A stretch of 64,000 nucleotides of DNA, from assembly GCF_054482595.1 (NCBI RefSeq), contig NZ_CM137008.1; one strand, given 5' to 3'. The notes beneath the pieces are model-generated. The model ran no database searches, had not been told where the DNA came from, and saw only the letters and a program-made list of their open reading frames with translations. The translations under genes were made by a program, and so were the position numbers. Numbering within the stretch: the first letter of the stretch is position 1; each line of letters begins with the position of its first letter. This document shows positions 8,876-63,849 of this stretch, piece by piece.

Positions 8876-8887
8876 CTTAAGAATTAG

Positions 8888-10144: not shown

Positions 10145-10155
10145 GTTGCTCCTGG

Positions 10156-11476: not shown

Positions 11477-11525
11477 GATAAAATCCTCACAGAAAATCGG
11501 TGAATGATAGTTTAACGATGACGGG

Positions 11526-12170: not shown

Positions 12171-12188
12171 CAGAATTCCCTTCCTGGC

Positions 12189-12410
12189 TCAGTTCAGGGT
12201 GACGCTCATCAGCCGGACATACGGGCCAAAACTGTCCTTACGGCGTTCTGCAAACACGGCCAGTACACCGGGAATATCCTGCACTTCACGACCGGTATAC
12301 GCTTCAGTGCTGCCGTGCCAGCGGTATTTGCCGGTGCAGAACGGAAAAAGACGGGATGCAGGATGCTGTTGGTGAATACGCATGGCTTCACCACGGGTGA
12401 TGATTTTCAT
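12189..12410 (-). CDS. YeeT-like DUF987 protein
   Basis: 73 aa, MKIITRGEAMRIHQQHPASRLFPFCTGKYRWHGS.... It holds the conserved position upstream of the antitoxin. Confidence 0.7.
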   Translation of the reverse strand: MKIITRGEAMRIHQQHPASRLFPFCTGKYRWHGSTEAYTGREVQDIPGVLAVFAERRKDSFGPYVRLMSVTLN

Positions 12411-32077: not shown

Positions 32078-32422
32078 CGTCAGGTGATGCATAAGGGCCT
32101 TTCGCTGAGAGGCCCTGTTTACACAATTAAATAAATCGAGCCCGACCAACAATTTTGATGTTAACAGCAGGATTATTGAGGGGCAATCAATGTGTTCTTC
32201 GGTAGCGATTACGGTAGTGAACGGACCTGCTGTCTGAATGGCATCGATCCGCAAGCGTATCGGCGCCATATTCTGAGCGTACTACTGAAATGGCTAATGG
32301 CAGTAAAGAGAGACTTTACGTATATTTGCATAAAGCAGGATTTTACGACTAGTCAACATTCTTTATAATTCTTCAGGTTCAGAGTATCTGACATATAGGG
32401 TTATGTATTGGGGAGACATTTA

Positions 32423-44148: not shown

Positions 44149-46746
44149 ATGTTAAAAGAATACCGTAAGCATGTAGCTGAGCGTGCCGCTGAGGGGATTG
44201 CGCCCAAACCCCTGGATGCAAACCAAATGGCCGCGCTTGTAGAGCTGCTGAAAAACCCGCCCGCGGGCGAAGAAGAATTCCTGTTAGATCTGTTAACCAA
44301 CCGTGTTCCCCCTGGCGTTGATGAAGCCGCCTATGTCAAAGCAGGCTTCCTGGCTGCTGTCGCCAAAGGTGAAGCCAAATCCCCACTGCTGACACCGGAA
44401 AAGGCCATCGAACTGCTGGGCACCATGCAGGGTGGTTACAACATTCATCCGCTGATCGACGCGCTGGATGATGCCAAACTGGCACCGATCGCTGCCAAAG
44501 CACTTTCTCACACGCTGCTGATGTTCGATAACTTCTATGACGTAGAAGAGAAAGCCAAAGCAGGCAACGAATATGCGAAGCAGGTAATGCAGTCCTGGGC
44601 GGATGCCGAATGGTTCCTGAATCGCCCGGCGCTGGCTGAAAAACTGACCGTTACCGTCTTCAAAGTCACTGGCGAAACCAACACCGATGACCTCTCTCCG
44701 GCACCGGATGCGTGGTCACGCCCGGATATCCCACTGCACGCGCTGGCGATGCTGAAAAACGCCCGTGAAGGCATCGAGCCAGATCAGCCTGGTGTTGTTG
44801 GCCCGATCAAACAGATTGAAGCTCTGCAACAGAAAGGTTTCCCGCTGGCGTACGTCGGTGACGTTGTGGGTACGGGGTCATCGCGTAAATCCGCCACGAA
44901 CTCCGTTCTGTGGTTTATGGGCGATGATATTCCACATGTGCCGAACAAACGCGGCGGTGGTTTGTGCCTCGGCGGTAAAATTGCACCCATCTTCTTTAAC
45001 ACGATGGAAGATGCGGGTGCACTGCCAATCGAAGTCGACGTCTCTAACCTGAACATGGGCGACGTAATTGACGTTTACCCGTACAAAGGTGAAGTGCGTA
45101 ACCACGAAACCGGCGAACTGCTGGCAACCTTCGAACTGAAAACCGACGTGCTGATTGATGAAGTGCGTGCTGGCGGCCGTATTCCGCTGATTATCGGGCG
45201 TGGCCTGACCACCAAAGCGCGTGAAGCACTTGGCCTGCCGCACAGTGATGTGTTCCGTCAGGCGAAAGATGTCGCTGAGAGCGATCGCGGCTTCTCGCTG
45301 GCGCAGAAAATGGTAGGTCGTGCCTGCGGTGTGAAAGGCATTCGTCCGGGCGCGTACTGCGAACCGAAAATGACTTCTGTAGGTTCACAGGACACCACCG
45401 GCCCGATGACCCGTGATGAACTGAAAGACCTGGCGTGCCTGGGCTTCTCGGCTGACCTGGTGATGCAGTCTTTCTGCCACACCGCGGCGTATCCGAAACC
45501 AGTTGACGTGAATACGCACCACACGCTGCCGGACTTCATTATGAACCGTGGCGGTGTGTCGCTGCGTCCGGGTGACGGCGTAATCCACTCCTGGCTGAAC
45601 CGTATGCTGCTGCCGGATACCGTCGGTACCGGTGGTGATTCCCATACCCGTTTCCCGATCGGCATTTCTTTCCCGGCAGGCTCCGGTCTGGTGGCATTTG
45701 CTGCTGCAACTGGCGTCATGCCGCTGGATATGCCGGAATCCGTTCTGGTGCGCTTCAAAGGCAAAATGCAGCCGGGCATCACCCTGCGCGATTTGGTACA
45801 CGCTATTCCGCTGTATGCGATCAAACAAGGTCTGCTGACCGTTGAGAAGAAAGGCAAGAAAAACATCTTCTCTGGCCGCATCCTGGAAATTGAAGGTCTG
45901 CCGGATCTGAAAGTTGAGCAGGCCTTTGAGCTGACCGATGCGTCCGCCGAGCGTTCTGCTGCCGGTTGTACCATCAAGCTGAACAAAGAACCGATCATCG
46001 AATACCTGAACTCCAACATCGTCCTGCTGAAGTGGATGATCGCGGAAGGTTACGGCGATCATCGTACCCTGGAACGCCGTATTCAGGGCATGGAAAAATG
46101 GCTGGCGAATCCTGAGCTGCTGGAAGCCGATGCAGATGCGGAATACGCGGCAGTGATCGACATCGATCTGGCGGATATCAAAGAGCCAATCCTCTGTGCT
46201 CCGAACGACCCGGATGACGCGCGTCCGCTGTCTGCGGTACAGGGCGAGAAGATCGACGAAGTGTTTATCGGTTCCTGCATGACCAACATCGGTCACTTCC
46301 GTGCTGCGGGTAAACTGCTGGATGCGCATAAAGGCCAGCTGCCGACCCGCCTGTGGGTGGCACCGCCAACCCGTATGGACGCCGCGCAGTTGACCGAAGA
46401 AGGCTACTACAGCGTCTTCGGTAAGAGTGGTGCGCGTATCGAGATCCCTGGCTGTTCCCTGTGTATGGGTAACCAGGCGCGTGTAGCAGACGGTGCGACG
46501 GTGGTTTCCACCTCTACCCGTAACTTTCCGAACCGTTTGGGTACTGGCGCGAATGTCTTCCTGGCTTCTGCGGAACTGGCCGCTGTTGCGGCGCTGATTG
46601 GCAAACTGCCGACGCCGGAAGAGTACCAGACCTACGTGGCGCAGGTAGATAAAACCGCCGTTGATACTTACCGTTATCTGAACTTCAACCAGCTTTCTCA
46701 GTATACCGAGAAAGCGGATAGGGTGATTTTTCCTAGTGTGGTTTAA
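44149..46746 (+). CDS. acnB: Aconitate hydratase B / 2-methylisocitrate dehydratase, full length
   Basis: 865 aa, colinear with K-12 AcnB ([26 protein letters not shown]...; Fe-S ligands in CSLCMGNQ). GGAG lies 6 nt upstream of the ATG, which is only 25 nt after the citG stop. Confidence 0.92.
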
Positions 46747-46815
46747 GAAGTCAGTGTGCTGCGTATAAAAAGCTAATACCAGGCTGCCTGTCATATCGAT
46801 TTCATGCAGGATAAG

Positions 46816-46846
46816 TAGAACTCCGTCTAATCTAGACGGAGTTCTA
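46816..46846. repeat. Perfect 14-bp-stem palindrome, homologous to IS66 left-end sequence at 58007-58037
   Basis: TAGAACTCCGTCTA-atc-TAGACGGAGTTCTA. The copy at 58007-58037 has two mismatches and runs into the orfA ATG. Confidence 0.8.
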
Positions 46847-46953
46847 TTGTATTGATGGCTTTGGTAGAAGCGTAAGTGTACAGCGAGAGCTGTATTGACA
46901 GGAATGCGTTATTCAGTTGGCAGTGTATTGCGCAGGGGGAGCCGTTCGCTGAC

Positions 46954-47590
46954 GTAAGCGGCTCGTCAGAACCGTATTGATATTTACTGAGCGGTCAGTT
47001 CAACTTTCCAGGGCAACAGATCACGTACCCGGTTTGCCGGCCAGTCCTGGATATGTTCAATGACGTAACGCAGCCATTTTCTGGCTCCTCATTGTTCAGA
47101 CGGCATGTGCCGATCAGCGAGTACAACACCGCCGCATGTTCGCCACCGTTGTCGGAACCCACGAAGAGCCAGTTTTTCCGGCCTACGGCCACTCCCCGTA
47201 AGGCGTTCTCTGCGATGTTGTTGTCGATTTCCACCCAGCCATTGCTGCAGTACACATTCAGGCCATCCCACTGTTTCAGCAGGTATGCGAACGCTTTTGC
47301 CGTATCCGAGTGACGCGACAGTGTTTTCATCTGAGTCTGTATCCAGTCATACAGTGACTGCATCAGTGGCGCAGCTCTGGCTTTTCTTGCTGCCAGACGC
47401 TGTTCTGCTGAACATCCCCGGACTTCTGCCTCGGTGGCATACAGTTCACCGATACGCTGCAGGGCTTCCGTGGTGATGTCGGTTGGCACTCTTACATGCA
47501 CATCGTGGATTCTTCTCCGGGAATGAGCCATACACGCGGCTTCCGTTACTCTGCCGGATTCGTATAACGCCTAAGCATCGGCCTGAAGCA
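46954..47590 (-). mobile_element. IS66-family right-end fragment carrying tnpC 3' part (pseudogene)
   Basis: The plus strand starts GTAAGCGG at 46954. The minus-strand translation reads ..[30 protein letters not shown]...[25 protein letters not shown], the IS66 TnpC C-terminal half. A frameshift near 47070 alters the last ~30 aa. Confidence 0.75.
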
Positions 47591-47997
47591 CACCACAAAG
47601 ACTGGCCTTCAGGCTGTACACGCAGCCAAAGCGTTTATCGTTGAACACCACATTTTTCTGGCTGATGTCCCATTCTTCACGCAGCATAGCAATCAGTTGT
47701 GGTGTGCAGGTAAGCAGCAAGCGAAAAGGCAGTTCAAAACTGGTGACGTAATCCACATTCAGCAGGGCAATACGCAGCAGTTCTTCTGGCCCTGCCTCTG
47801 TCTGCCGACACTCCTCCAGAACATCCTGCTACTGCCGACGAAGATATGGAGATTCATTCAATTCTGTAAAACCGTATTTATCCGCCAGATAGTCAATTCG
47901 TGTACGCATACTGAAAAGAATTCCGTATAAAAATTCAGCAGACAAAACTTTATCAGCCCATAAGAATCAACGGAAGAGCCAGTAACGTACCAGATTA

Positions 47998-48510
47998 TCA
48001 CCTGGCTATTGTTGCCATAACGGGTAACATAAGGGACTGAACAGTTGTCTTTAGCACAACGAACTGATCTAATGTACCTGAACGGTCAACCTGAAAACAG
48101 CTTTCCAACCGACATTGTCCGCCAGCGTTTATCCCCGACCAGGTCTGTTGCAGTAAATCCACCACTTGCGAACATTCTTCATCAACTGTGGCACTGACCC
48201 GCAGATGGCAAATGCTCGCCTGGCTGAGCAGCAACAGGCATCGTATTGTTGCTTCTCCATGTTGTTCCAGCAACCAGCGTAATACCACCGGCGGTGCTGG
48301 ACTGGCAGTGTGATTACGCTCAGTAATATGTTCTTGCACCTGTCGGTAAAAGGCAGTACAGAATGCATGAATCTGTTGCCCGTTGATGTTTCCTTCTGCC
48401 GAATAGAGCGTGAAGTGGACTGCCAGCAGACGCGGCCAGTGGTCCACCGCCTGCTGAACAAAACGCCAGATATCTCCCGGCTCTGAAAGTAACGCTTCGG
48501 TTATTTGCAC
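47998..48510 (-). CDS. YagK/YfjJ-family (inovirus Gp2-like) protein, third paralogue
   Basis: 170 aa. HWPRLLAVHFTLYSAEG ... VVLRWLLEQHGEATIRCLLLLSQ follows the family motif order. Confidence 0.45.
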   Translation of the reverse strand: MQITEALLSEPGDIWRFVQQAVDHWPRLLAVHFTLYSAEGNINGQQIHAFCTAFYRQVQEHITERNHTASPAPPVVLRWLLEQHGEATIRCLLLLSQASICHLRVSATVDEECSQVVDLLQQTWSGINAGGQCRLESCFQVDRSGTLDQFVVLKTTVQSLMLPVMATIAR

Positions 48511-48669
48511 GGAATACTACTCCTTCAGACTCTGTTAAGTTTTGTTTGTTAAACCGGTGCAGACCTGCAGGAAAGCACGCCAGCACCGGCACTGTACGAT
48601 ATAAACATCCGGTACCGGGGATACGAATGGAATGACGAATACGCCAGAAAAGGGATAACAACCTTCCTC

Positions 48670-49827
48670 ATAATGGTGAAATCATTCGCTATCGGTTACA
48701 CGGTACGCGATGTCGCCAAAGGCAGCTGGATCGACGAATCCACGGTCACGCTACCGAAAGCGCCGCCGCTTAACACCCTGCCTCGGGCGACCAAAGTGCC
48801 GGAGCCACTGCCGCCGCAGGAAGATTACACCTTTGAAGGTTACCGCAACGCCGACGGCAGCGTGGGCACCAAAAACCTGTTGGGTATTACCACCAGCGTG
48901 CACTACATGGCAGACGTTGAGGACTACGTGGTTAAAATTATCGAACGCGACCTGCTGCCGAAATACCCGAGCATCGACGGCGTGGTCGACTTGAACCACC
49001 TCTACGGCTGTGGCGTAGCGATTAATGTACCGGCCGCCGTGGTGCCAATTCGCACCATCCATAATATTGCGCTGAACCCAAACTTCGGTGGCGAAGTGAT
49101 GGTGGTGGGCATGCAGTGCGGTGGCAGCGACGCGTTCTCCGGCGTTACCACTAACCCCGCTGTCGGCTACGACTCTGACCTGCTGGTGCGCTGCGGCGCA
49201 ACGGTGATGTTCTCCGAAGTCACTGAAGTACGCGACGCCATTCATCTGTTAACGCCACGCGCCATCAATGAAGAAGTGGGCAGGCGTCTGCTCGAAGAGA
49301 TGGCCTGATACGATAACTATCCCGATATGGGCAAAACCGACCGCAGCGCCAACCCTTCGCCGGGCAACAAAAAGGGCGGCCTCGCCAACGTGGTAAAGAA
49401 AGCACTCGGCTCCATTGCTAAATCGGGTAAAACCGCAATTGTTGAAGTGCTGTCGCCCGGTCAACACCCGACTAAACGCGGATTAATTTACGCCGCGACG
49501 CCAGCCAGCGATTTTGTCTGTGGCACGCAACAGGTGGCTTCGGGTATCACCGTGCAAGTGTTTACGACCGGCCGTGGTACGACGTACGGCCTGATGGCGG
49601 TACCCGTCATTAAAATGGCGACCCGCACCGGGCTGGCGAACCACTGGTTTGATTTAATGGATATTAACGCAGGCACTATCGCTACCGGCGAAGAGACCAT
49701 TGAAGAGGTGGGCTGGAAGTTGTTCCACTTTATTCTCGACGTCGCCAGCGGGAAGAAGAAAACTTTCTCGGATCAATGGGGATTGCATAACCAGCTGGCA
49801 GTGTTTAACCCGGCACCGGTGGCCTGA
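48670..49827 (+). pseudogene. garD: Galactarate dehydratase garD, 5'-truncated with internal deletion and premature stop
   Basis: Homology starts at about K-12 codon 60 (NGEIIRY). [13 protein letters not shown] collapses about 90 aa of K-12 GarD. EEMA-stop at 49306-49308 replaces EEMEWYDNY. The 3' part (49327-49827) is intact. Confidence 0.8.
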
Positions 49828-49856
49828 TATTCTCTTCATACATTAAGTTGTATTAT

Positions 49857-49881
49857 GCCCGATAACGCTTGTTTATCGGGC
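49857..49881. terminator. Bidirectional hairpin between convergent garD' and agaR
   Basis: GCCCGATAA-N7-TTATCGGGC. Confidence 0.5.
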
Positions 49882-49889
49882 ATAGTGAA

Positions 49890-50714
49890 TCACAGCGAAG
49901 ACGCGAGCTCCCCGACCAGAATCACTTCAACCCCAGCCTTTCGCAAGCCTTCCAGACTATCCGCAGGAATGCCTTCATCAACAATGATCATGTCGATACG
50001 TTTAGTATCAATGATCTTATGTAAACTGGAACGATTGAACTTACTGGAATCGGTGACCACGATGATCCGTTCCGCAACTTCGCACATCCGGCGGTTTAAA
50101 CGGGCTTCATCTTCATTATGCGTGCTGACGCCGCGCTCCAGATCGATCGCATCTACACCAAGAAACAGCATATCGAAGTGGTAATTTTGCAGCGATTGCT
50201 CAGCCTGATCGCCGTAAAAAGATTGCGACTGACGGCGCAAATGCCCGCCGGTCATCAGCAGCTCAACGCCTTCCGCTTCCAGCAACGCATTAGCCACGTT
50301 CATACCGTTGGTCATCGCAATTACGTCAGTGTGCTTGCGCATCAGACGAGCAATCTCAAAAGTGGTGGTCCCGGAATCGAGGAGCACCCGATGACCTGGC
50401 TGAATCAACTCAACGGCAGCTTTCGCAACGCTGCGTTTCATCGCGGTGTTCAGTGCGCTTTTGTCTTCCACTGATGGCTCGACTGACGGCGTCGTGCTAT
50501 CGCAGATCAACGCGCCACCATAGGCACGCACAGCGATCCTCTGCTTTTCCAGAAACGCCAGATCGTTGCGGATCGTCACAGTAGATACGCCATACAATGC
50601 CGACAGATCGTTAACCTGCACACTCCCTTGCTGTCGCAGACGCTGAATGATCTGTTCTCGTCGCTCGCTGGTGCCTGTCACTCGCTTCTCACCTGAAGCG
50701 TCGGTATTACTCAT
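49890..50714 (-). CDS. agaR: DeoR-family repressor of the N-acetylgalactosamine regulon
   Basis: 274 aa, [44 protein letters not shown].... Near-identical to K-12 AgaR as I recall it, with a slightly longer C-terminus. Confidence 0.9.
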
Positions 50715-50721
50715 AGTAAGT

Positions 50722-50932
50722 CCTTTCGTAAAACTTTCGTTTCATTTCGTTTTGCCTATTAACGCCTTTCTATTAAGCAAATGCAAGCCCACCTTGCCCA
50801 TTGGCGCAAGCTACTCTCGTTTCACTGACTTTCATTATGTTTCTTTTGTGAATCGGATCAGAAAACCATTATCTTTCGTTTTATTTTTATCTCACCATGA
50901 CGCAGTATGAACTGAAACAAAACGAAAGATTA
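50722..50932. promoter_or_regulatory. agaR-kbaZ divergent control region with AgaR-type TTTCGT operator repeats
   Basis: CTTTCGTAAAACTTTCGTTTCATTTCGTTTTG (50722-50756), ATCTTTCGTTTTATTTT (50871-) and the inverted AAACGAAAGA (50920-). Confidence 0.55.
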
Positions 50933-50962
50933 ATATCGCAGCAATCTGAACTGGAGAGGAAA

Positions 50963-51301
50963 GTGAAACATCTGACAGAAATGGTGAGGCAGTACAAAGC
51001 GGGCAAAACAAATGGAATTTATGCCGTTTGTTTTGCCCGCTTTGTGCTGCATGGGGCGAGCGATGTGCCGGATGAGTATGTTCGTCGCACCATTGGGCCA
51101 GGCGTCTGCAAAGTCAACGTTGCAACCGAGTTGAAGATCGCCTTCTCTGACGCCATCAAAGCTTGGTTTGCTGAAAATCAGCAGAGCAACGATCCGTGCT
51201 TTTACATGCGGGTTGGCATGGACGCCATGAAAGAGGTGGTCAGAAGCAAAATCGCCGTCTGCGGCTCGGCAAATCGATTACGGCTACCGGCGGAGGCCTG
51301 A
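50963..51301 (+). pseudogene. In-frame kbaZ'-'kbaY deletion fusion
   Basis: (V)[22 protein letters not shown] (KbaZ N-terminus) is joined to [17 protein letters not shown]...VATELKIAF...[24 protein letters not shown] (KbaY C-terminus). agaVWEFA and agaS are missing. Confidence 0.8.
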
Positions 51302-51414
51302 TCCAACAGCGTATTACCTCAATATTTCAAAATAATTATAAGTCTCACAAATATGAAGGCGCGTCCTTAAACCGGGTAGCGCCTTCCATTATCCTAAAAT
51401 TCGAGGAGCCCTAT

Positions 51415-52986
51415 ATGACACAAAAAAAATCTTTTAAATCAAAATTATGGGAGTTTTTACAAAGTCTGGGAAAAACCTTTATGTTCCCGGTTTCGCTTCT
51501 TGCCTTTATGGGATTGCTGCTGGGTATCGGTAGTTCAGTCACCAGCCCTTCCACCATTACTAGTTTTCCCTTTCTGGGCGGCGAATTTACCCAGTTGACC
51601 TTTGGCTTTATCGCTATGGTCGGTGGCTTTGCTTTTACCTATCTGCCGCTGATGTTTGCCATGGCGATCCCCATGGGGCTTGCCAAGCGCAACAAAGCGG
51701 TCGCTGCCTTTGCCGGGTTCGTTGGCTACATGCTGATGAACATGAGCATTAATTATTACCTGACGGCTACCCACCAGCTTGCCGACCCCGCCACCATGAA
51801 ACAGGTAGGACAATCGATCGTGCTGGGCATTCAAACCCTGGAGATGGGGGTATTAGGTGGCATTGTGGTTGGGGTTATCACCTATTTTCTGCATGACCGT
51901 TTTCAGGACACGGTTCTGCATGACGCCTTCGCCTTCTTTAGCGGCATTCGTTTCGTGCCGATTATTACCGCGCTCACCCTGTCGCTGGTGGGTCTGTTCA
52001 TTCCCATGCTGTGGGAATACGTCGCGCTGGGCATCGCGGGTATTGGGCATATCATCCAGAGCACCAGCGTTTTCGGCCCCTTCCTCTACGGCGTAGGCGT
52101 GCTGCTGCTTAAACCTTTTGGTCTGCACCACATCCTGCTGGCGATGGTGCGTTTTACCCCAGCAGGCGGCATTGAAATGGTAAATGGCCATGAGGTCGCC
52201 GGGGCGCTGAATATCTTCTACGCCGAGCTCAAAGCCGGCCTGCCGTTTAGCCCGCACGTTACCGCGTTTCTGTCACAAGGGTTTATGCCGACCTTTATCT
52301 TCGGTTTACCCGCCGTGGCTTACGCCATCTACCGCACCGCGCGTCCGGAAAATCGGCCGGTCATTAAGGGGTTGCTGCTTTCCGGCGTGCTGGTTTCCGT
52401 CGTCACCGGTATTTCAGAGCCGATTGAGTTCCTGTTCCTGTTTATCGCCCCCGCGCTTTACGCCTTCCATATCGTCATGTCTGGCCTGGCGCTGATGGTA
52501 ATGGCCCTGCTGGGAGTGACCATCGGCAATACCGACGGCGGCATTCTGGATCTGCTGATTTTCGGCGTGATGCAGGGAATGTCGACCAAATGGTATCTGC
52601 TGTTCCCGGTTGGTATTGCCTGGTTTGCCATCTACTTCTTTGTCTTCCGCTGGTACATCCTCAAACACAACATCAAAACGCCGGGCCGCGAGGTGGATGT
52701 TCAGGGGGCACAGCAAGCCGTCGAGGCGAACACCCGCGCGCGCGGAAAATCAAAATACGATCACGAGCTTATCCTGCGTGCGCTCGGAGGTAAAGAGAAC
52801 ATTGAGTCGCTTGATAACTGTATTACCCGCTTGCGTCTGGTGGTGAAAGATATGGGCCTTATCGATCAGCAGGCGCTGAAAGCGGCAGGCGCGTTGTCAG
52901 TGGTGGTGCTTGATGCGCATAGCGTGCAGGTGATCATCGGACCGCAGGTACAGAGCGTCAAAACCGGCATTGAAGCCTTAATTTAA
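51415..52986 (+). CDS. PTS EIICB component, glucose/maltose (MalX-like) family
   Basis: 523 aa from ATG 51415 (SD GAGGAG): a polytopic EIIC followed by a C-terminal EIIB with NCITRLRL (phospho-Cys motif). The track start at 51196 is an extension. Confidence 0.8.
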   Translation: MTQKKSFKSKLWEFLQSLGKTFMFPVSLLAFMGLLLGIGSSVTSPSTITSFPFLGGEFTQLTFGFIAMVGGFAFTYLPLMFAMAIPMGLAKRNKAVAAFAGFVGYMLMNMSINYYLTATHQLADPATMKQVGQSIVLGIQTLEMGVLGGIVVGVITYFLHDRFQDTVLHDAFAFFSGIRFVPIITALTLSLVGLFIPMLWEYVALGIAGIGHIIQSTSVFGPFLYGVGVLLLKPFGLHHILLAMVRFTPAGGIEMVNGHEVAGALNIFYAELKAGLPFSPHVTAFLSQGFMPTFIFGLPAVAYAIYRTARPENRPVIKGLLLSGVLVSVVTGISEPIEFLFLFIAPALYAFHIVMSGLALMVMALLGVTIGNTDGGILDLLIFGVMQGMSTKWYLLFPVGIAWFAIYFFVFRWYILKHNIKTPGREVDVQGAQQAVEANTRARGKSKYDHELILRALGGKENIESLDNCITRLRLVVKDMGLIDQQALKAAGALSVVVLDAHSVQVIIGPQVQSVKTGIEALI

Positions 52987-52997
52987 CAGGAGGAGTG

Positions 52998-54173
52998 ATG
53001 TTTGATTTCGACAAAATCATTGAGCGTCAAAGTGATAAGTGCCGTAAATGGGACCATACCTTTGTTTGCTCGCGTTTCGGTGACGTCCCGGAGTCCTTTA
53101 TCCCCCTGTGGATAGCCGATATGGATTTCACCTCACCACCTGCGGTGATTGACGGTTTCCGGCGCATCGTGGAGCACGGCACCTTTGGTTATACCTGGTG
53201 CTTTGACGAATTCTACGACGCGGTCATTGCCTTCCAGCGCAAACGTCATCAGGTTGAGGTGGAAAAGTCGTGGATCACGTTGACCTACGGCACCGTATCC
53301 ACGCTGCACTACACGGTTCAGGCATTCTGCAAACCGGGTGACAGCGTGATGATGAACACGCCGGTCTACGATCCTTTTGCGATGGCGGCACAGCGCCAGG
53401 GCGTGCAGGTACTGGCTAACCCGCTGCGCGTGGAGGAAAACCGCTATCAGCTTGATTTTAATCTGATAGAAGAACAGCTCAAAACCCACCGTCCAACGCT
53501 GTGGTTCTTCTGCTCGCCACATAACCCGTCCGGCAGGATCTGGCGCGAGGAAGAAATACGCCAGGTGTCCGATCTCTGTCAACGCTACGGCACGATTCTG
53601 GTGGTCGATGAGGTTCACGCTGAACACATTCTGGATGGCAAATTCGTCAGTTGTCTCACCTCTGGCTGTGCCGCCCAGGACAACCTGATCGTGCTCACAT
53701 CGCCCAACAAAGCGTTCAATTTGGGCGGGCTGAAAACCTCCTACTCCATGATTCCAGACGACTCGCTGCGCCAGCGCTTCCGCCAGCAGCTCGAGAAGAA
53801 CTCCATTACCTCGCCCAATTTGTTCGGGGTATGGGGAATCATTCTGGCCTATCAACACGGTCTGCCCTGGCTCGACGCGCTGAACGGTTATCTGCAAGGC
53901 AACGCCCGGTATCTGGCGGATGCCCTCCAGACCCACTTCCCGGCGTGGAAGATGATGAACCCGGAATCGTCGTATCTGGCGTGGATAGACGTAAGCGCGG
54001 ATGAGCGTAGCGCAACGCAGCTAACCCAACATTTCGCACGGCAGGCAGGCGTGGTCATAGAAGACGGCAGCCACTATGTACAAAACGGTGAAAACTACCT
54101 GCGGATTAATTTTGGCACCCAGCGCTACTGGCTGGAGCAGTCCATTAACCGAATGCTGAAAAATGACAAATAA
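52998..54173 (+). CDS. MalY/PatB-type PLP-dependent C-S lyase (aminotransferase class I/II)
   Basis: 391 aa with DFDKIIERQSDKCRKWD and WIADMDF. It follows the EIICB gene after 11 nt, the same pairing as K-12 malX-malY. Confidence 0.75.
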   Translation: MFDFDKIIERQSDKCRKWDHTFVCSRFGDVPESFIPLWIADMDFTSPPAVIDGFRRIVEHGTFGYTWCFDEFYDAVIAFQRKRHQVEVEKSWITLTYGTVSTLHYTVQAFCKPGDSVMMNTPVYDPFAMAAQRQGVQVLANPLRVEENRYQLDFNLIEEQLKTHRPTLWFFCSPHNPSGRIWREEEIRQVSDLCQRYGTILVVDEVHAEHILDGKFVSCLTSGCAAQDNLIVLTSPNKAFNLGGLKTSYSMIPDDSLRQRFRQQLEKNSITSPNLFGVWGIILAYQHGLPWLDALNGYLQGNARYLADALQTHFPAWKMMNPESSYLAWIDVSADERSATQLTQHFARQAGVVIEDGSHYVQNGENYLRINFGTQRYWLEQSINRMLKNDK

Positions 54174-54186
54174 GGATCTTACCCCG

Positions 54187-56076
54187 ATGAAGAAAGTGCT
54201 CACTCTCTCACTGCTGGCTCTCTGCGTTTCTCATGGTGCAGCGGCAGCAAACTACGCGCTCAATAACGACAATATTGCCCTCTTGTTTGATGATACAAAC
54301 TCAACGGTCGTGGTGAAGGACAACAAGGCTAACCATCCGCTCACGCCGCAGGAGTTGTTCTTTCTGACGCTGCCGGATGAGAGTAAAATCCACACCGTGG
54401 ATTTCAAAATCAAGCACGTCGAAAAGCAGGATAACGCGATTATCATCGACTTTACGCACCCGGATTTTAACGTCACGGTGAAGCTGAACCTAGTGAAGGG
54501 AAAATACGCCAACATCGGCTACACCATTGCCGCCGTGGGGCAGCCGCGCGACGTCGCTAAAATCACCTTCTTCCCGACCCAAAAACAGTCTCAGGCTCCT
54601 TACGTAGACGGCGCAATCAATAGCTCTCCGATCGTTGCGGACTCGTTCTTTATCCTGCCGGATAAACCGATCGTGAATACCTACGCCTATGAAGCCACCA
54701 CCAATCTCAACGTAGAGCTGAAAACGCCGATTCAGCCAGAGGCGCCGGTCAGCTTTACTACTTGGTTCGGCACTTTCCCGGAAACCAGCCAGCTGCGCCG
54801 CAGCGTGAACCAGTTTATTAATGACGTACGTCCACGCCCATACAAGCCTTATCTGCACTACAACAGCTGGATGGATATCGGCTTTTTCACTCCCTACACT
54901 GAACAGGATGTGCTGGGGCGTATGGACGAGTGGAACAAGGAGTTCATTACGGGCCGCGGCGTGGCGCTGGACGCCTTCCTGCTGGATGATGGCTGGGACG
55001 ATCTGACCGGACGCTGGCTATTTGGCACGGCATTCAGAAACGGTTTTAGCAAAGTACGGGAGAAAGCCGACAGCCTGCACAGCTCCGTTGGGCTATGGCT
55101 TTCACCGTGGGGTGGCTACAACAAACCGCGCGACGTTCGCGTTTCGCATGCAAAAGAGTATGGGTTCGAAACCGTGGACGGCAAACTGGCGCTGTCGGGA
55201 GCGAACTACTTTAAAAACTTCAATGAGCGGATCATCAAGCTTATCAAAAACGAGCACATCACCTCGTTTAAACTCGACGGGATGGGTAACGCCAGTTCGC
55301 ATATCAAAGGCAGCTCGTTCGCCTCAGATTTCGATGCATCAATCGCCCTGCTGCACAATATGCGCAGCGCAACTCCGAATCTGTTTATCAACCTGACCAC
55401 CGGCACCGACGCCAGCCCGTCCTGGCTGTTCTACGCTGATTCTATCTGGCGTCAGGGAGATGACATCAACCTGTATGGTTCCGGTACGCCGGTGCAGCAG
55501 TGGATGACCTACCGCGATGCCGAGACGTACCGCTCCATTGTCCGTAAAGGCCCTCTGTTCCCGCTGAACTCGCTGATGTACCACGGGATAGTCAGCGCCG
55601 AGAATGCCTATTACGGGTTAGAGAAGGTGCAAACGGACAGCGACTTTGCCGATCAGGTCTGGAGCTACTTCGCGACCGGCACCCAGCTGCAGGAGCTGTA
55701 TATTACCCCGTCCATGCTGAACAAGGTGAAGTGGGATACGCTGGCGAAGGCTGCAAAATGGTCGAAGGAAAATGCCAGCGTGCTGGTTGATACCCACTGG
55801 ATTGGCGGCGACCCAACGGCGCTTGCCGTGTACGGCTGGGCATCCTGGAGCAAAGACAAAGCCATTCTCGGTTTGCGCAACCCATCGGATAAGCCACAGA
55901 CCTACTATCTGGATTTGGCGAAGGATTTCGAAATACCGACAGGAGACGCGGCGCAGTTTAGTCTGAAAGCGGTATACGGCAGCAATAAAACCGTGCCCGT
56001 TGAGTATAAAAACGCGACGGTGATTACGTTGCAGCCGCTGGAAACGCTGGTGTTTGAGGCGGTGCCCGTTAACTAA
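54187..56076 (+). CDS. Exported putative glycoside hydrolase (alpha-galactosidase-like DDGWD motif)
   Basis: Signal peptide MKKVLTLSLLALCVSHGAAAANY. Contains FLLDDGWDD and KLDGMG. 629 aa from ATG 54187. Confidence 0.5.
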   Translation: MKKVLTLSLLALCVSHGAAAANYALNNDNIALLFDDTNSTVVVKDNKANHPLTPQELFFLTLPDESKIHTVDFKIKHVEKQDNAIIIDFTHPDFNVTVKLNLVKGKYANIGYTIAAVGQPRDVAKITFFPTQKQSQAPYVDGAINSSPIVADSFFILPDKPIVNTYAYEATTNLNVELKTPIQPEAPVSFTTWFGTFPETSQLRRSVNQFINDVRPRPYKPYLHYNSWMDIGFFTPYTEQDVLGRMDEWNKEFITGRGVALDAFLLDDGWDDLTGRWLFGTAFRNGFSKVREKADSLHSSVGLWLSPWGGYNKPRDVRVSHAKEYGFETVDGKLALSGANYFKNFNERIIKLIKNEHITSFKLDGMGNASSHIKGSSFASDFDASIALLHNMRSATPNLFINLTTGTDASPSWLFYADSIWRQGDDINLYGSGTPVQQWMTYRDAETYRSIVRKGPLFPLNSLMYHGIVSAENAYYGLEKVQTDSDFADQVWSYFATGTQLQELYITPSMLNKVKWDTLAKAAKWSKENASVLVDTHWIGGDPTALAVYGWASWSKDKAILGLRNPSDKPQTYYLDLAKDFEIPTGDAAQFSLKAVYGSNKTVPVEYKNATVITLQPLETLVFEAVPVN

Positions 56077-56143
56077 ACGCTTGTCCCAATGAGCAGACCG
56101 AGTAAGGCGCAAGCGCCACCCGGCAAAACCGGCAGCAGGGGCT

Positions 56144-56400
56144 TATTCCCCCTGCTTTTCCAGCGCATACTTATACAACGCATTCTTCTTCACTCCGTGG
56201 ATTTCTGCCGCCAACGCCGCCGCTTGCTTCAACGGCAGCTCAGCCTACAACAGCGCCAGCGTACGCAGCGCATTGGCGGGCAGTTCGTCATCCTGGGCTT
56301 TATGGCCTTCAATAATCAGCACCATCTCGCCTTTGCGAGGGTTTTTATCTTCTTTGATCCACGCCAGCAGTTCGCCGACCGACGTGCCGTGGATGGTTCC
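56144..56400 (-). pseudogene. rsmI: rsmI (yraL) 3' fragment with in-frame TAG
   Basis: The minus strand reads [83 protein letters not shown]. This is the RsmI C-terminus. The 5' part is replaced by IS66 tnpC. Confidence 0.75.
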
Positions 56401-56404
56401 CAGG

Positions 56405-57191
56405 CGGGTGTTCATCACATAACGGTATAGGGCATCATTCAGCGGAGCCATTAACTGGCAGCACGCGTCAACCCAGTTGGAGAGTAATGCACGGCTCAGC
56501 TCGACGCCCTAACGGGCAAAGATTTCACTCTGACGGTACAGTGGCAGATGTTCGCAGTATTTCCCGTTAACACACGGGCAAGCAAGCCGGGACCTGCGAT
56601 ACCACGCTCTATCGGACGGGACGGCGCCGGTGCTTCAACAATACAGTCACATTTTGTACAGGCTTTTTTTACCCGAACAGTGCGGATCACTTTCAGGGCA
56701 CTGCTCACCAGTTCCAGCTGCTCAGCACTGACTTCCCCCAGATAATCCAGCTCACTGCCACACTCCTGGCAACAACTTTCTTCAGGTTCCAGGCGGTGTA
56801 TTTCACGGGGAAGATGTGCCGGTAACGGACGACGATGACGTGACTGTCGCAACTGGCGGGGAACCTGCGGGTCATCCTCTCGCCCACTGTAACGATCGCT
56901 GTCCTGTTCTCGTTGTTTCAGTTGGGACTCAGCCTGTTCAACCTCACGCTGCAGTTTTTCAGAACGGGTACCGAACAGCATCCGGCGCAGTTTTTCTATC
57001 TGAGCCCGAAGATGTTCTATTTCCCGTTCCTCCTCTTCGATCTTTTCTTCGGCGCGGGCCAGCGCAGAGCGCAGGAAGGCCTCCGTCTCTTCAACCAGAC
57101 TCAGTTGCTGGTCTTTCTGACGGAGGGCTTCAGCCTGCTCAGAGAGCAACCTTTCCAGTTCTGCAATGCGAATGAGGTATTTCTGACTCAT
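56405..57191 (-). pseudogene. IS66 tnpC, 5' half, frameshifted and with in-frame TAG
   Basis: 231 aa are in frame (coiled-coil N-terminus, CCQECGSELDYLGE zinc motif). GKYCEHLPLYRQSEIFAR*GVELS.. then continues in another frame. Confidence 0.75.
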
Positions 57192-57221
57192 GACCGTTTT
57201 TATAATGCGGTCAGGAGTTTT

Positions 57222-57572
57222 TTACAACATTGTCAGTGAGTTAAGGCGGGATGTTTTTGGCTGACGCCAGTCCAGCTTATCGAGGAGCATTGCCAGTTGC
57301 GAGCGGGTAATGGATACCTTGCCGTCACGTACCGCAGGCCAGATAAACTGGCCTTCCTCCAGGTGTTTGGTGAACTGGCACAGACCATCAGAATCGGCCC
57401 AGAGTATTTTAACAGTGTCACACCGTCGGCCACGAAAGATAAACAGGTGACCTGAGAAGGGGTTCTCATCCAGCACATGTTGTACCTGTTCTCCCAGACC
57501 GTTGAAGGATTTACGCATATCGGTAACGCCGGCAACGAGCCAGATGCGGGTACCTGATGGGCGTGAGATCAT
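57222..57572 (-). CDS. IS66 OrfB (TnpB accessory protein)
   Basis: 116 aa, IWLVAGVTDMRKSFNGLGEQVQHVL.. The ATGA overlap with orfA is typical of IS66. Confidence 0.85.
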   Translation of the reverse strand: MISRPSGTRIWLVAGVTDMRKSFNGLGEQVQHVLDENPFSGHLFIFRGRRCDTVKILWADSDGLCQFTKHLEEGQFIWPAVRDGKVSITRSQLAMLLDKLDWRQPKTSRLNSLTML

Positions 57573-58003
57573 CTTCCCCTCCCGGTCAGTTCACGGATCA
57601 ACACAGTGAGCAGCTCTGGTGAAGGATTTTCCAGTGTCATTTTACCGTAATGGAATTCCACATGGCAGGAAGCCGCACAAGCAACTGATAATGCCTCCGG
57701 AGCAGGAGCATCTGTAGCACAGAGCGGGGTGTCGGTAAGTTCCACTGGAACCAGAGTCGGAGAGGCCGGAAAAGATTGTGGTACTGTAGGGCCTACAATA
57801 GTTGGAGGTATTCTACGAGAAATACGTATTTCTCTTTGCCAGAGGCGTAGCCATTTAAAAATCAGGTTGTTATCAACGCCATGTTCCCGGGCCAGTTGTG
57901 CAACATTGGCATTTGGTTTCGAAGCCAGTTCAACCATATGAAGCTTAAATTCATTAGAAAATATCCGGCGGGTCCCAGTGCGCCAGTCTGTAGATTTATC
58001 CAT
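57569..58003 (-). CDS. IS66 OrfA (TnpA accessory protein)
   Basis: RRIFSNEFKLHMVELASKPNANVAQLAREHGVDNNLIFKWLRLWQ is an HTH. ATG 58003; the track uses TTG 58006. Confidence 0.8.
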   Translation of the reverse strand: MDKSTDWRTGTRRIFSNEFKLHMVELASKPNANVAQLAREHGVDNNLIFKWLRLWQREIRISRRIPPTIVGPTVPQSFPASPTLVPVELTDTPLCATDAPAPEALSVACAASCHVEFHYGKMTLENPSPELLTVLIRELTGRGR

Positions 58004-58348
58004 CAATAGAACTCCGTCTAATTTAGAAGGAGCTCTAATTTAGTCTGCAAGGATCAGGTGTTACAGACGGCACTGGCTTTACGTTTACAAACAGTACGTG
58101 ATGAGTATGAGGCTTTTTTATCTGTATATAATCCCTCATTCTGTAAATTGGGATAGGGCAATTTCACAATCATCCTCCTCCCATATCACCAGTATATACT
58201 GAGCCGTGTTTATCTATTTGGTTAAAATTCGCTACAATCCCATTTTCTCTTTTGGGAATATAACAGTCTCCATTGTCTCTTTATTGGTTAATGGAGACTG
58301 TGTTTAAAGGAAGAAATCAGGAGTGATTGACAGGGTACCTGTCAGCAA

Positions 58349-59659
58349 TCAATACAATTCAGATTCCAGTTTTCCGTTCCCTGCAATTTTATTTAGTCCG
58401 GGAGAGTTCAATCTCTCCAGACATAACGAAAACAGTTCAACACCTGTATCCAGCACATTTTCATCAAAATCAAAATCAACTTCGTGATGACCTGCTTTTA
58501 AATCACTGCCAAGTATTATATATGCAGCTTTTCCTCCTCTCTTCTGTACACGGCGAATAAGGATCGTTGCATCTTCACTGCCCCCAAATGATTTATCTGT
58601 CAAAGACATGTTCATATCTTCTTGTGCTATATAGTGTATCAGATTGACAAGTAAAGGGTCATTATGTAAATCCGTTGCTTCACCAACCACTTTGTACTCA
58701 AAACGTAAACCAAATATGGAAGAAATACCTTGTGCTATTTTTAGAGCATGTTCACGCATGTATTGATTTATTGTTTCCGTTTCTCCACGAACTTCAAGCT
58801 GCATCCTTGCAAAAGACGGGATTATGTTCCTTCCTTCACCTGCGTTTAGAGTGCCAATATTTATCCGGGACATACCTTCACCATGGCGTGGAATGGCAAG
58901 TAATTGCGTTGCACAGTGACAAGCTGCTGCCAGTGCATTATTTCCCAGGTGAGGATTTACACCAGCATGTGCCGGAGTACCATAGAAAAAGAAATCCATT
59001 TTTGTCGTACACAACAAATCTGTAGGTGAAGCGACAACATTTCCTGTAGGAACTCCCATACCAATATGTGCAGAAAGGAAGTAGTCGCAGTCATCAAGAA
59101 TACCACCTTCTGCAATAGGTTTTGCACCGCGAACGCCTTCTTCTGCAGCCTGAAAAATTAGCTTAATTTTCCCGCATAACTTATGGTTATTTTCAGATAC
59201 CCATTGTGCCAATCCTAAACCAATCGATATATGACCATCATGTCCACATGCATGCATTAAGCCAGAGTGTATGGATGCAAATCCCATTTTTTCAGGAATA
59301 TGATCTTTCGATTTTGATTCACTTACCTGTACACAATCAATGTCAAAACGAAACGCAGTGACAGCTCCATTTTTTCCTGTATCCCATAAAGCAACACACC
59401 CTGTAAAGCCATCCATTTCATCCAGCAATTCATGGGGAACGCCTGAATCAACTGCACGTTTTATACTATCTGCAACTTCAGTTGCATTACGGCCCATAAT
59501 ATATTCTATTGACAGGTATTTATTCCCCGTAATAACCTGCCATCCCATACCACGCAGAATAGTAATTATCTTTGACGTTGTGATAAATTCGCACCACCCA
59601 CTTTCCGGAATATGGTGAAATTCTCTCCGCCATTTTTGTAACTGATTCAGTTCAGACAT
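58349..59659 (-). CDS. M20D-family amidohydrolase (AbgA/HipO-like)
   Basis: 436 aa with the metal-binding motif MHACGHDGH and EEGVRGAKP. Confidence 0.75.
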   Translation of the reverse strand: MSELNQLQKWRREFHHIPESGWCEFITTSKIITILRGMGWQVITGNKYLSIEYIMGRNATEVADSIKRAVDSGVPHELLDEMDGFTGCVALWDTGKNGAVTAFRFDIDCVQVSESKSKDHIPEKMGFASIHSGLMHACGHDGHISIGLGLAQWVSENNHKLCGKIKLIFQAAEEGVRGAKPIAEGGILDDCDYFLSAHIGMGVPTGNVVASPTDLLCTTKMDFFFYGTPAHAGVNPHLGNNALAAACHCATQLLAIPRHGEGMSRINIGTLNAGEGRNIIPSFARMQLEVRGETETINQYMREHALKIAQGISSIFGLRFEYKVVGEATDLHNDPLLVNLIHYIAQEDMNMSLTDKSFGGSEDATILIRRVQKRGGKAAYIILGSDLKAGHHEVDFDFDENVLDTGVELFSLCLERLNSPGLNKIAGNGKLESELY

Positions 59660-62103: not shown

Positions 62104-62433
62104 ATGACCAGGATGCGATGGACGCTTGACCAGAAAAAACATCACGTTGCTGCATGGCGTGCCAGTGGTCTTACACGCCAGCAATACTGTGAACTCAACG
62201 ATATTCCCTTCACATCACTTCGCGAATGGCCGCAGGATGTCGCAAAAGCTGAACGCCGGGCAAATGAACCGACCGTTCTTCCCGTTCATATTGCGCCACC
62301 ACTGCATGCTGATGTATCACAGCCCGTCACGAATGAGCCAGTCACGCTCTTCCTCCCCGGCGGAGTACGGATGTGCTGTCAGCCGTCACAACTTACCGAT
62401 GTCTTCAGGGCGCTCAAATGTGCTCAGTCCTGA
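62104..62433 (+). CDS. IS66 OrfA
   Basis: 109 aa, WTLDQKKHHVAAWRASGLTRQQYCELNDIPFTSLREW. Confidence 0.7.
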   Translation: MTRMRWTLDQKKHHVAAWRASGLTRQQYCELNDIPFTSLREWPQDVAKAERRANEPTVLPVHIAPPLHADVSQPVTNEPVTLFLPGGVRMCCQPSQLTDVFRALKCAQS

Positions 62434-62779
62434 TAATGTCTTCATCGCGATTAAACCTGCTGATATGCGCCGGGGCATCGACACACTGACGCAGTATATA
62501 CAGGATGAACTCAGGTCGACATGGCATGAGGGAGCCGCCTTCGTCTTTGTTAACAAAGCCCGTTCGCGTATCAAAGTTCTGCGCTGGGATAAACACGGGG
62601 TGTGGTTGTGTACCCGTCGTCTGCATAAAGGCAGCTTCCGCTGGCCACGTACAAATGACGTTGCCTGGCACCTCACTCCCGACGAGTTTAATTGGCTTAT
62701 TGCCGGTGTTGCCTGGCAGCAAGTTAAGGGACATGACCTGACGAAATGGGTCTGGCTGAATGAAGCTGAACTGCGTGCT
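62420..62779 (+). CDS. IS66 OrfB (no separate stop; frame runs on into tnpC)
   Basis: GTG 62420, VLSPDNVFIAIKPADMRRGIDTLTQYIQDEL...VLRWDKHGVWLCTRRL. The 3' limit is approximate. Confidence 0.55.
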
Positions 62780-63752
62780 ATGGCACTTGCCATGGTGCAA
62801 AAAGTCATGTCGGAGAATGCCGAAAAAGAGCGGGAATTACTGGAGAAAAGCCGGCGCATCCAGCTTCTGGACGAAATGCTGAAACTGGTTCGTCAACAGC
62901 GCTTCGGTAAAAATGTGAGACGCTGGCTGGTATGCAACGCTCCCTGTTCGAAGAGGATGTTGATGCCGATATCGCCGCGCTCACCGCACATCTGGATAAA
63001 CTGCTCCCGCAATCCCCTGAAGAAGACGAAAAAGCGCCCCGTTCATGCCCGATACGCAAACCCTTACCGGTCCATCTTCCACGGGTGGAAAAAATTATCC
63101 AGCCGGACACTGACCATTGCCCTGAATGTGACGAGCTGCTGCACTATATCCGTGATGCGGTGAGTGAAAAGCTGGAGTATATTCCCGCTCACTTCGTGGT
63201 GAACCGTTATGTCCGTCCGCAATACAGTTGTCCCTGTTGCCTGAAGGTGTTTAGCGGTGAAATGCCGGCACATATCCTCCCGAAAAGTGCCGTTGAGCCG
63301 TCAGTCATCGCACAGGTGATCATCAATAAATACAGTGACCACCAGCCTCTGTATCGCCAGCAACAGATCTTTGCCCGTTCAGATGTCGGGCTGCCCGTCA
63401 GTTCGATGGCTGATATGGTTGGCGCGTCGGGAGCCACATTATCCCCCCTGGCGGCGTTACTCCATCGCGAGTTGATAAGCCGTCAGGTGGTGCATGCAGA
63501 TGAGACTACCCTGAAGATCCTGAACACGAAGAAAGGCGGTAAATCCTGCTCCTGTTATCTGTGGGCATACGTCAGTGGAGAAAGGACAGGACCGTCAGTT
63601 GTGTGTTTCGACTGCCGGACCGGACGTAGCCATGAGTATCCTGAAAACTGGCTTCAGAGCTGGGTCGGGACACTGGTTGTTGACGGACATAAAGCTTACC
63701 GGACTCTGGCAAACAAAGTGCCGGAGATCACGCTGGCCGGATGCTGGGCCCA
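62780..63752 (+). pseudogene. IS66 tnpC, frameshifted (~62905) and truncated
   Basis: ..LVRQQRFGKN shifts frame to MQRSLFEEDVDADIAAL...CPECDELLHYI...YSDHQPLYRQQQIF...VHADETTLKIL. It ends at LAGCWAH. Confidence 0.7.
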
Positions 63753-63849
63753 TGTCAGTCATGCCAGTGAAACTGGTGATGTAGTTCATGTCGATCAGTA
63801 GAGTGTTGGCACGCAGCAATACGCTGTCGTGGCTTGTTGTGGCCAACAT
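63753..63849 (-). pseudogene. alpA-like regulator, 5' 32 codons only
   Basis: MLATTSHDSVLLRANTLLIDMNYITSFTGMTD parallels MVDMAFITQLTGLTDKWFYKL of the alpA at 25126-25335. The rest is replaced by IS66 sequence. Confidence 0.6.

Follow-up and report, generated by a model that had tools for sequence, protein, structure and literature searches.

The core chromosome of Escherichia coli K-12 carries the ordered locus garD-prlF-yhaV-agaR-kbaZ...kbaY-agaBCDI-(yra)-rsmI-lpoA. A different arrangement, kbaZ-aga-kbaY-malX-malY-637-aa gene-rsmI-lpoA, is found in Kluyvera genomosp. 3 YDC799 and, in the same order, in Enterobacter sp. MGH 24. A gene named malX also serves as a 'PAI marker' of ExPEC, recognized by the Johnson & Stell RPAi amplicon, for which the RPAi f/r primer sequences are available (PMC12058657). 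Among insertion sequences of the IS66 family, the two reference elements relevant here are ISEc43 and ISCro1 (IS names rest on the RefSeq/PGAP annotation of reference copies), whose TnpC proteins share 51% amino-acid identity and which are ∼64–74% identical to each other in nucleotide sequence.

We analysed a 64 000-nucleotide stretch of contig NZ_CM137008.1 (assembly GCF_054482595.1), referred to below as the window, in which genes resembling the K-12 locus lie between two IS66-type pieces. We interpret this interval, with a probability of about 0.9, as a mosaic stretch of an E. coli tRNA-Phe island in which two different IS66 relics bound a decayed foreign copy of the garD–aga–rsmI region.

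The two IS66-family relics

The right-hand relic (56404–58088, minus strand), delimited by nucleotide and amino-acid identity, Pfam domains and junction alignment, contains orfA (58006–57569; Pfam HTH_Tnp_1), orfB (57572–57222; TnpB_IS66) and codons 1 to ∼263 of tnpC (57191–56405; LZ_Tnp_IS66 and zf-IS66). These domains bear out an earlier preliminary description, made from the sequence alone, which had placed orfA, orfB and a 5′ half of tnpC on the minus strand. The orfA-orfB-tnpC order is shared with ISEc43 as well as ISEc47, ISEc23 and IS682 (RefSeq E. coli), and both the left terminal repeat and the internal hairpin of ISEc43 are also present. The repeat, GTAAACGTAAAGCC... (GTAAACG...), has its outer edge at 58088 rather than 58082 as first reported, and the terminus there reads GTAAACGTAAAGCCAGTGCCGTCTG compared with GTAAGCGTAAAGCCAATGCCGTCTG in ISEc43, an outer inverted repeat of the GTAAGCG type. 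The relic is 93.5% identical to ISEc43 over 1686 bp, with 95% amino-acid identity for TnpC residues 1–210, whereas in nucleotide sequence it hardly resembles ISCro1 (73% over just 96 bp). Its 6.5% divergence marks it as a relative of ISEc43 and not a copy. No more than the 5′ 63% of the element remains: tnpC is frameshifted near 56565 and breaks off at about codon 263 without reaching the DDE domain, and neither a complete DDE transposase nor a second terminus was found in the relic. At 56404/56405 the sequence changes abruptly from tnpC to the 3′-terminal ∼86 codons of rsmI, with the two matches overlapping by 1 bp, which agrees with the switch first reported.

The left-hand relic (46954–47597, minus strand; nucleotide and amino-acid identity, Pfam) comprises tnpC codons ∼313–523 together with the right terminal repeat (...GCCGCTTAC), which is intact and forms a GTAAGCG-type terminus at 46954 that differs from that of ISCro1 by one base. 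It matches the C-terminal half of Pfam DDE_Tnp_IS66 (profile positions 153–283 of 284, E = 1e-40), in keeping with the 3′ half of tnpC recognized previously, although it begins at ∼47597 and not at 47590. Nucleotide identity is 94.2–96.1% to ISCro1-type elements (94–96% to ISCro1 itself over the last ∼640 bp) compared with ∼65% to ISEc43 and 65–73% to ISEc43/ISEc23, and the TnpC part is 90% identical to that of ISCro1 but 50% to that of ISEc43. Just the 3′ quarter of the element is left; it has lost 12 bp close to its inner end and is frameshifted near 47078, and the window is devoid of ISCro1-type tnpA/tnpB. The nearest intact relative is a complete ISCro1-type IS with the 8-bp target duplication ACAGGAAC, and its 5′ region matches the right-hand relic of the window in short stretches alone (72–75%).

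A 41-nt palindrome (46811–46851), 83–86% identical to 58002–58042, sits between the end of acnB and the ISCro1-like terminus; when a few adjacent bases are included, it is similar to the ISEc43-type left-end hairpin and orfA start, and is thus a tiny third IS66-type scrap. Several IS66-family scraps are present in the window. Inward of the left-hand relic, and cut by it, is a DNA-binding protein pseudogene of the island backbone (47589–47909, minus strand; RefSeq annotation of an identical genome), which is 86% identical at the nucleotide level to a homologous pair in CFT073. The 170-aa ORF that follows (47998–48510, minus strand) had been labelled Gp2-like, but it has no Pfam or NCBIfam match and no similarity to the annotated Gp2 protein of the island.

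The preliminary description took the two pieces for same-strand halves of one IS66 element, as would result from insertion of the 8.8-kb block or from a rearrangement. Both pieces indeed belong to the IS66 family, lie on the same strand, keep one outer terminus each and are roughly complementary; counted in aligned TnpC residues, the 5′ piece stops at ∼263 and the 3′ piece resumes at ∼327, a gap of ∼60–63 codons and not the 70–80 previously estimated. We nevertheless consider a split element very unlikely. The tnpC parts belong to different family members, ISEc43-like and ISCro1-like, an outcome named in advance as refuting a single origin, and cross-comparisons give only ∼50% amino-acid and at most 73% nucleotide identity. 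Intact relatives do carry 8-bp target duplications, but the outer flanks here (GTACTGTT and GTCAGCGA) do not match. The inner joints have very unequal distributions (517 genomes for the right, 23 records for the left), and the block with its tnpC′ joint is found in other islands without the ISCro1 piece. Both relics are 4–6% distant from their nearest full-length relatives, and a never-sampled hybrid IS, ISEc43-like in its 5′ and ISCro1-like in its 3′ part, is formally conceivable. Mobilization of the block as a composite transposon by two direct IS66 copies would account for same-strand pieces with intact termini facing outward, but is extremely improbable: instead of two transposition-competent copies around a cargo there are two truncated and frameshifted ones, of different IS members and without a flanking target duplication, neither of which has a complete transposase and neither of which can therefore move, and elsewhere the block is carried with no left piece.

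The gene block between the relics

In the garD pseudogene (48660–49827, plus strand) the 5′ end is missing, ∼205 bp have been deleted internally and there is a frameshift/stop. By identity to E. coli the pseudogene consists of two parts: up to ∼49350 it is 77–81% identical, whereas from ∼49400 it is 92–97% E. coli-like, with a jump from ∼79 to ∼97% near 49350–49400. This jump opens an E. coli-like patch of ∼1.65 kb (∼49400–51032, defined by identity windows) that runs from the 3′ end of garD through agaR into kbaZ, of which it takes in the first 70 nt. Most of its 100-bp windows show 96–100% identity to K-12 (one shows 92%); the patch is without prlF-yhaV and has foreign-type DNA on either side. 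Within it, agaR (49890–50714, minus strand) is intact and encodes a second AgaR repressor of 274 aa (NCBIfam AgaR equivalog, 457 bits) with 98.3% nucleotide identity to K-12. Sequence comparison identifies the next feature (50963–51301, plus strand) as a fusion of kbaZ′ (75 bp) and ′kbaY (258 bp), and a 30-nt inverted repeat (50989–51018/51021–51050) lies exactly on the deletion joint. The preliminary description had recognized garD with its three lesions, agaR and the kbaZ′–′kbaY fusion, as well as the malXY-like pair described below, and these readings are borne out. The order and orientation of garD, agaR, kbaZ, kbaY and rsmI are those of the K-12 core; the island version differs in being a decayed second copy that lacks prlF-yhaV and the kbaZ–kbaY interior, in having malX, malY and the 637-aa gene in place of agaBCDI/yra, and in the low identity (77–84%) of its garD 5′ part, kbaY′ and rsmI′.

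From ′kbaY onwards, the block (51044–56404) is a chromosomal segment of Kluyvera/Enterobacter type. It includes a malX-type PTS IIBC gene (51415–52986), a MalY/PatB C–S lyase gene (52998–54173), the gene for the 637-aa protein (54163–56076) and rsmI′ (56143–56404, minus strand). The whole segment gives a single collinear match of 5363 bp to the YDC799 chromosome at 94.4% identity, compared with 83–88% for most Enterobacter loci (87.8 plus 83.3% for MGH 24) and 77–84% for E. coli. In Kluyvera genomosp. 3 the order kbaY-malX-malY-637-aa gene-rsmI is native and adjoins lpoA, and in Kluyvera/Enterobacter genomes an intact rsmI is followed by lpoA-yraN-diaA-dolP (seen in loci L064 and L009). Collinearity and core-gene flanks thus identify the segment as orthologous to this locus; kbaY and rsmI are complete among core genes in YDC799 and MGH 24, whereas both are truncated in the window, where the segment resides in an island. 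As the best match reaches just 94.4%, the true donor lineage is unsampled.

The 637-aa protein has no match in Pfam, NCBIfam or the PDB, leaving the earlier label 'glycosidase' without backing; RefSeq names its gene either 'enterotoxin' or 'alpha-galactosidase'. The RPAi f/r primer sites have no match in the window at up to three mismatches, and its malX is not the ExPEC marker in this sense. Intact genes, which may be expressed, are agaR, malX, the malY-like gene and the 637-aa gene; the remainder of the block is dead.

Distribution and origin of the module

Of 5426 complete E. coli genomes, 517 have the rsmI′/tnpC′ joint; it lies in several kinds of island, the iro/serX type among them, and many carriers retain just 86–117 bp of tnpC. 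The joint at the ISCro1 relic occurs in just 23 records; the window arrangement is carried by 23 complete genomes, seven of which are identical along the entire 13 kb compared, while the other 16 match to 57648. In the serX/iro islands of E. coli SCU-104, MEI4BO-21 and CU39ES-1, the module shares with the window the rsmI′/tnpC′ joint and the block from agaR to the 637-aa gene (98.2–99.5% identical in two strains), but has only 86–117 bp of tnpC and no ISCro1 relic on the left; two strains carry an IS421 insertion. The CU39ES-1 module is 5.7% different and has other deletions, with more of kbaZ kept and malX lost. Two versions that are 5.7% apart in the foreign part and yet share the same joint imply a long or complicated history.

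Three origins had been proposed for the block: fusion of core DNA to the island by deletion or inversion, capture of a second, decayed core copy, and mis-assembly at IS66 repeats. A genome that matches the window at 100% along the 13 kb compared has an intact garD-prlF-yhaV-agaR-kbaZ...kbaY-agaBCDI-rsmI-lpoA core at 617–632 kb, present once and ∼200 kb away, to which most of the block is only 77–90% identical. A rearrangement of the strain's own core is hardly credible against these two observations, even though the block looks like the K-12 core in gene order, its agaR shares 98% identity with that of K-12 and the outer flanks of the island derive from the surroundings of pheV and pheU, which indicates that large rearrangements occur here. 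The capture proposal holds in that the block is a decayed second copy, but fails in that most of it is not from E. coli. Duplication of the E. coli core would fit the 96–100% identity of the ∼1.65-kb patch and the 96.6% identity of the neighbouring island acnB to K-12, but we regard it as unlikely: a core duplicate should show at least ∼97% identity along the block, a level attained only at ∼49400–51032, while the segment beyond it is closest to Kluyvera genomosp. 3, the 5′ part of garD is only 77–81% identical to E. coli, and the 637-aa gene stands beside an intact rsmI in none of the 5426 E. coli genomes. Mis-assembly might be suspected from the several IS66-family scraps; however, the 23 independent complete genomes agree, 517 carry the right-hand joint, both joints fall within unique sequence and the IS pieces are not similar enough in nucleotide sequence to lead an assembler astray, which makes an artefact exceedingly unlikely.

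In the mosaic that we favour, an old illegitimate deletion would have joined the middle of tnpC of an ISEc43-like element (5′ 1685 bp) to the middle of rsmI. This joint probably arose once and now resides, with adjacent genes, in different islands of ∼10% of complete E. coli genomes, whereas the 3′ 0.64 kb of an ISCro1-like element on the left would be a later, lineage-specific relic (23 genomes). The right 5.4 kb of the block would derive from a Kluyvera/Enterobacter-type chromosome, in which malX, malY and the 637-aa gene are native between kbaY and rsmI, and the 5′ end of garD is likewise of foreign type. The patch around agaR was most likely produced when an Escherichia core copy recombined with this DNA (gene conversion), but could instead reflect assembly of the module inside an Escherichia chromosome. 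Deletions inside the block, one from kbaZ to kbaY and one in garD, would together with truncations have completed the decay. A more speculative possibility, to which we give low weight, is that the module is a long-lived, selectively kept sugar-utilization cassette of Kluyvera/Enterobacter origin (malX, malY-like gene and the family-less 637-aa protein) that moves between E. coli islands together with a second AgaR; gene conversion against the core version would have preserved the E. coli-like character of this AgaR, and the island copy might then cross-talk with the core aga regulon.

Two different IS66 relics and a decayed foreign copy found in about one in ten E. coli amount to ordinary island mosaicism, an already known phenomenon, and the significance is slight beyond annotation hygiene. 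Same-strand fragments of one IS family call for a check of the IS to which each belongs before they are called one split element, and genes that look 'core-like' in an E. coli island can turn out to be xenologues derived from a neighbouring genus and patched through recombination by the resident core copy. The rsmI′/tnpC′ joint offers a handy clonal marker for tracing the module through pheV/pheU- and serX-type islands.

Two different IS66-family relics

The interval is bracketed by two IS66-type remnants, both on the minus strand. The 5' part, an ISEc43-like relic (58088–56404), starts with an IS66-type left terminus (GTAAACGTAAAGCC...) at 58088, not at 58082 as given in the preliminary description, and retains orfA (58006–57569; HTH_Tnp_1), orfB (57572–57222; TnpB_IS66) and a frameshifted 5' part of tnpC (57191–56405; LZ_Tnp_IS66 and zf-IS66). 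The last ~86 codons of rsmI take over from tnpC at 56404/56405, which confirms the switch reported earlier. The 3' part, an ISCro1-like relic (47597–46954), carries the C-terminal half of DDE_Tnp_IS66 and ends with ...GCCGCTTAC. About 60–63 codons separate the two tnpC parts, instead of the 70–80 previously estimated, and nothing in this interval is capable of transposition.

The two parts had been taken for halves of a single IS66 element, a reading refuted by their affinities. The 5' part is 93.5% identical to ISEc43 over 1,686 bp and to ISEc23 over a match of 1,269 bp, and is essentially without nucleotide similarity to ISCro1. The 3' part shows 94–96% identity to ISCro1-type elements, compared with only 65–73% to ISEc43/ISEc23. 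Compared as protein, the 5' part has 95% identity to ISEc43 TnpC against 50% to ISCro1 TnpC, while the corresponding values for the 3' part are 50 and 90%; the two reference TnpC proteins are 51% identical. Identical copies aside, the closest relative of the 3' relic is a complete ISCro1-type IS inserted in agn43, where it is flanked by an 8-bp duplication; the 5' region of this IS is dissimilar to the 5' part of the window. The outer flanks of the window, GTACTGTT and GTCAGCGA, lack a shared target duplication. On these sequence comparisons, the two parts are different IS66 members and do not form one element.

A third IS66 copy (about 62105–63754, plus strand), considered as an inversion partner of the ISCro1-like relic, was rejected because it is a different member again; it is truncated (tnpA, tnpB', tnpC') and without nucleotide similarity to ISCro1, ISEc43 or ISEc23. 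A 78-bp IS66-family scrap at 32218–32294 shows 85% identity to the 3' end of ISEc43/ISEc23 tnpC. The only repeat bracketing the interval is a 41-nt palindrome, with copies (83–86% identical) at 46811–46851 and 58002–58042. The latter sits within the ISEc43-like left end; the former lies directly past acnB, some 100 bp beyond the ISCro1-like terminus. The TATTGATGG that comes next is also seen where orfA starts, and this copy is probably a ~50–60 bp scrap of a further IS66-type left end.

Content and largely foreign origin of the block

Nearly all of the genes previously listed for the interval are present in the ORF map and sequence. The block between the relics contains, in order, a DNA-binding pseudogene, a 170-aa ORF, garD', agaR, kbaZ'/'kbaY, malX, a malY-like gene, a 637-aa gene and rsmI'. 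Four of these are intact genes with possible function: agaR, malX, the malY-like gene and the 637-aa gene. Profile and PDB searches with the 170-aa ORF and the 637-aa protein gave no match; the former label 'Gp2-like' for the 170-aa ORF finds no support in profile or sequence comparison, and 'glycosidase' for the 637-aa protein (54163–56076) is unsupported by Pfam, NCBIfam and PDB sequences. RefSeq names the latter protein 'enterotoxin' or 'alpha-galactosidase'. It has close homologues throughout Enterobacteriaceae (74–97% identity across Enterobacteriaceae and Yersinia/Serratia), and homologues of 36–45% identity occur in Gemmatimonadota metagenome-assembled genomes. The ExPEC 'PAI marker malX' has been equated with CFT073 locus c2013 (PMC3203889); identification of malX of the window (51415–52986) with this marker was rejected, the RPAi primers of Johnson & Stell (sequences taken from PMC12058657) having no site in the window.

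Two proposed origins of the block, the strain's own core DNA fused to the island and a decayed second copy of that core, can be weighed against GTEN_97 (NZ_CP113493.1), one of seven complete genomes 100% identical to 46000–59000 of the window, the source of which is E. coli. GTEN_97 keeps an intact core at 617–632 kb (garD-prlF-yhaV-agaR-kbaZ-agaVWEF-nagA-agaS-kbaY-agaBCDI-rsmI-lpoA), so the block is not the strain's own core. A second copy does exist, but it is mostly foreign and not E. coli's own. Scored against the GTEN_97 core copy and K-12, identity to the E. coli core is 77–80% for the 5' part of garD', ~90% for its 3' part, 97.5–98.3% for agaR and kbaZ', 77% for 'kbaY and 84% for rsmI'. 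In 100-bp windows, identity to K-12 is about 79% until around 49350–49400, where it jumps to about 97%, and persists at 96–100% until the kbaZ'/'kbaY joint at 51032.

Beyond this joint, 51044–56404 ('kbaY-malX-malY-637-aa gene-rsmI') aligns collinearly in one piece with the Kluyvera genomosp. 3 YDC799 chromosome at 94.4% identity, compared with 83–88% to most Enterobacter loci. Kluyvera genomosp. 3 and Enterobacter sp. MGH 24 both show the order kbaZ-aga...-kbaY-malX-malY-637-aa gene-rsmI-lpoA-yraN-diaA-dolP, a locus that is native there and corresponds to the E. coli region. In many loci of Enterobacter, Klebsiella and Raoultella, prlF-yhaV is missing and garD-agaR-kbaZ lies immediately upstream. 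The 637-aa gene adjoins an intact rsmI in none of 5,426 complete E. coli genomes. The block is thus a xenologue of the entire locus that has been truncated and has lost internal parts, and that is E. coli-like in a patch surrounding agaR.

The kbaZ'/'kbaY deletion joint (51032/51044) coincides exactly with a 30-nt inverted repeat (50989–51050; 2-nt loop), whose right arm repeats authentic kbaZ 5' sequence in inverted orientation. The structure resembles a fold-back scar left by the deletion, and SCU-104 and MEI4BO-21 carry it too.

Age and spread of the joints

Probed with 201 bp spanning it, and counted when at least 80% of the probe was covered, the rsmI'/tnpC' joint was detected in 517 of the 5,426 genomes; the joint of the ISCro1 relic with the DNA-binding pseudogene (~47597) was found in only 23 records. 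The iro/serX-type islands of SCU-104, MEI4BO-21 and CU39ES-1 have the same rsmI'/tnpC' joint with only 86–117 bp of tnpC left, and lack the ISCro1 relic on the left side of the module. IS100 further truncates the ISEc43-like orfA at 57648 in 16 genomes. Thus, the rsmI'/tnpC' joint is old and the window is its most complete known state, the left relic being a later local addition. Matches on either side of the joint overlap by 1 bp, which is more in keeping with illegitimate deletion than with an event at an IS end.

The CU39ES-1 module (serX island, record positions 5383–12231) has the joint and the E. coli-like patch in common with the window, yet it keeps 624 bp of kbaZ (more than the window), no longer has malX and is 5.7% divergent across malY-637-aa gene; the module is therefore old and diversified. 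Among E. coli island modules, divergence this deep is unusual. In the stretch of the CFT073 serX island examined the block is absent, and only the pair of 170-aa ORF and DNA-binding pseudogene is present (86%). Literature searches, in which 'agaR' collides with 'agar', found no specific description of the module.

Island setting and proposed history

Sixteen further genomes match the window at ≥99.8% as far as 57648. In GTEN_97 the window occupies 826–890 kb of a very large mosaic island that begins next to yghD and kps/kfi capsule genes, carries Ag43, CP4-type modules and a citCDEFXG-acnB cluster, and has genes for an integrase and tRNA-Phe at its other end. Its left flank (815 kb; yghD/kps) is the pheV neighbourhood, and its right flank (917.8 kb; integrase, tRNA-Phe, dicD(yjdC)-dsbD-cutA-groESL) corresponds to the surroundings of pheU in K-12; the remaining pheU neighbour, cadC, is located 1.3 Mb off at 4.709 Mb, beside another island of >100 kb. 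These flanks are consistent with a large inversion via pheV/pheU island recombination. The island acnB (44149–46769; 96.6% nucleotide identity to K-12 acnB), with citCDEFXG upstream, is another core-type gene set located in the island. An Rfam scan of 46500–58500 gave no match.

In the history that we propose, a Kluyvera/Enterobacter-type chromosomal segment would have been placed beside an ISEc43-like element, and an illegitimate deletion would have produced the tnpC–rsmI fusion. Inter-island recombination would then have spread the module among tRNA-associated islands of E. coli, a stretch of about 1.65 kb surrounding agaR would have been replaced by recombination with an Escherichia core copy, and the aga interior would have been lost through independent deletions. 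Finally, an ISCro1-like element would have inserted on the left in this lineage and been truncated itself. The interval is ordinary island mosaicism, all pieces of which are already annotated in RefSeq genomes as partial genes.
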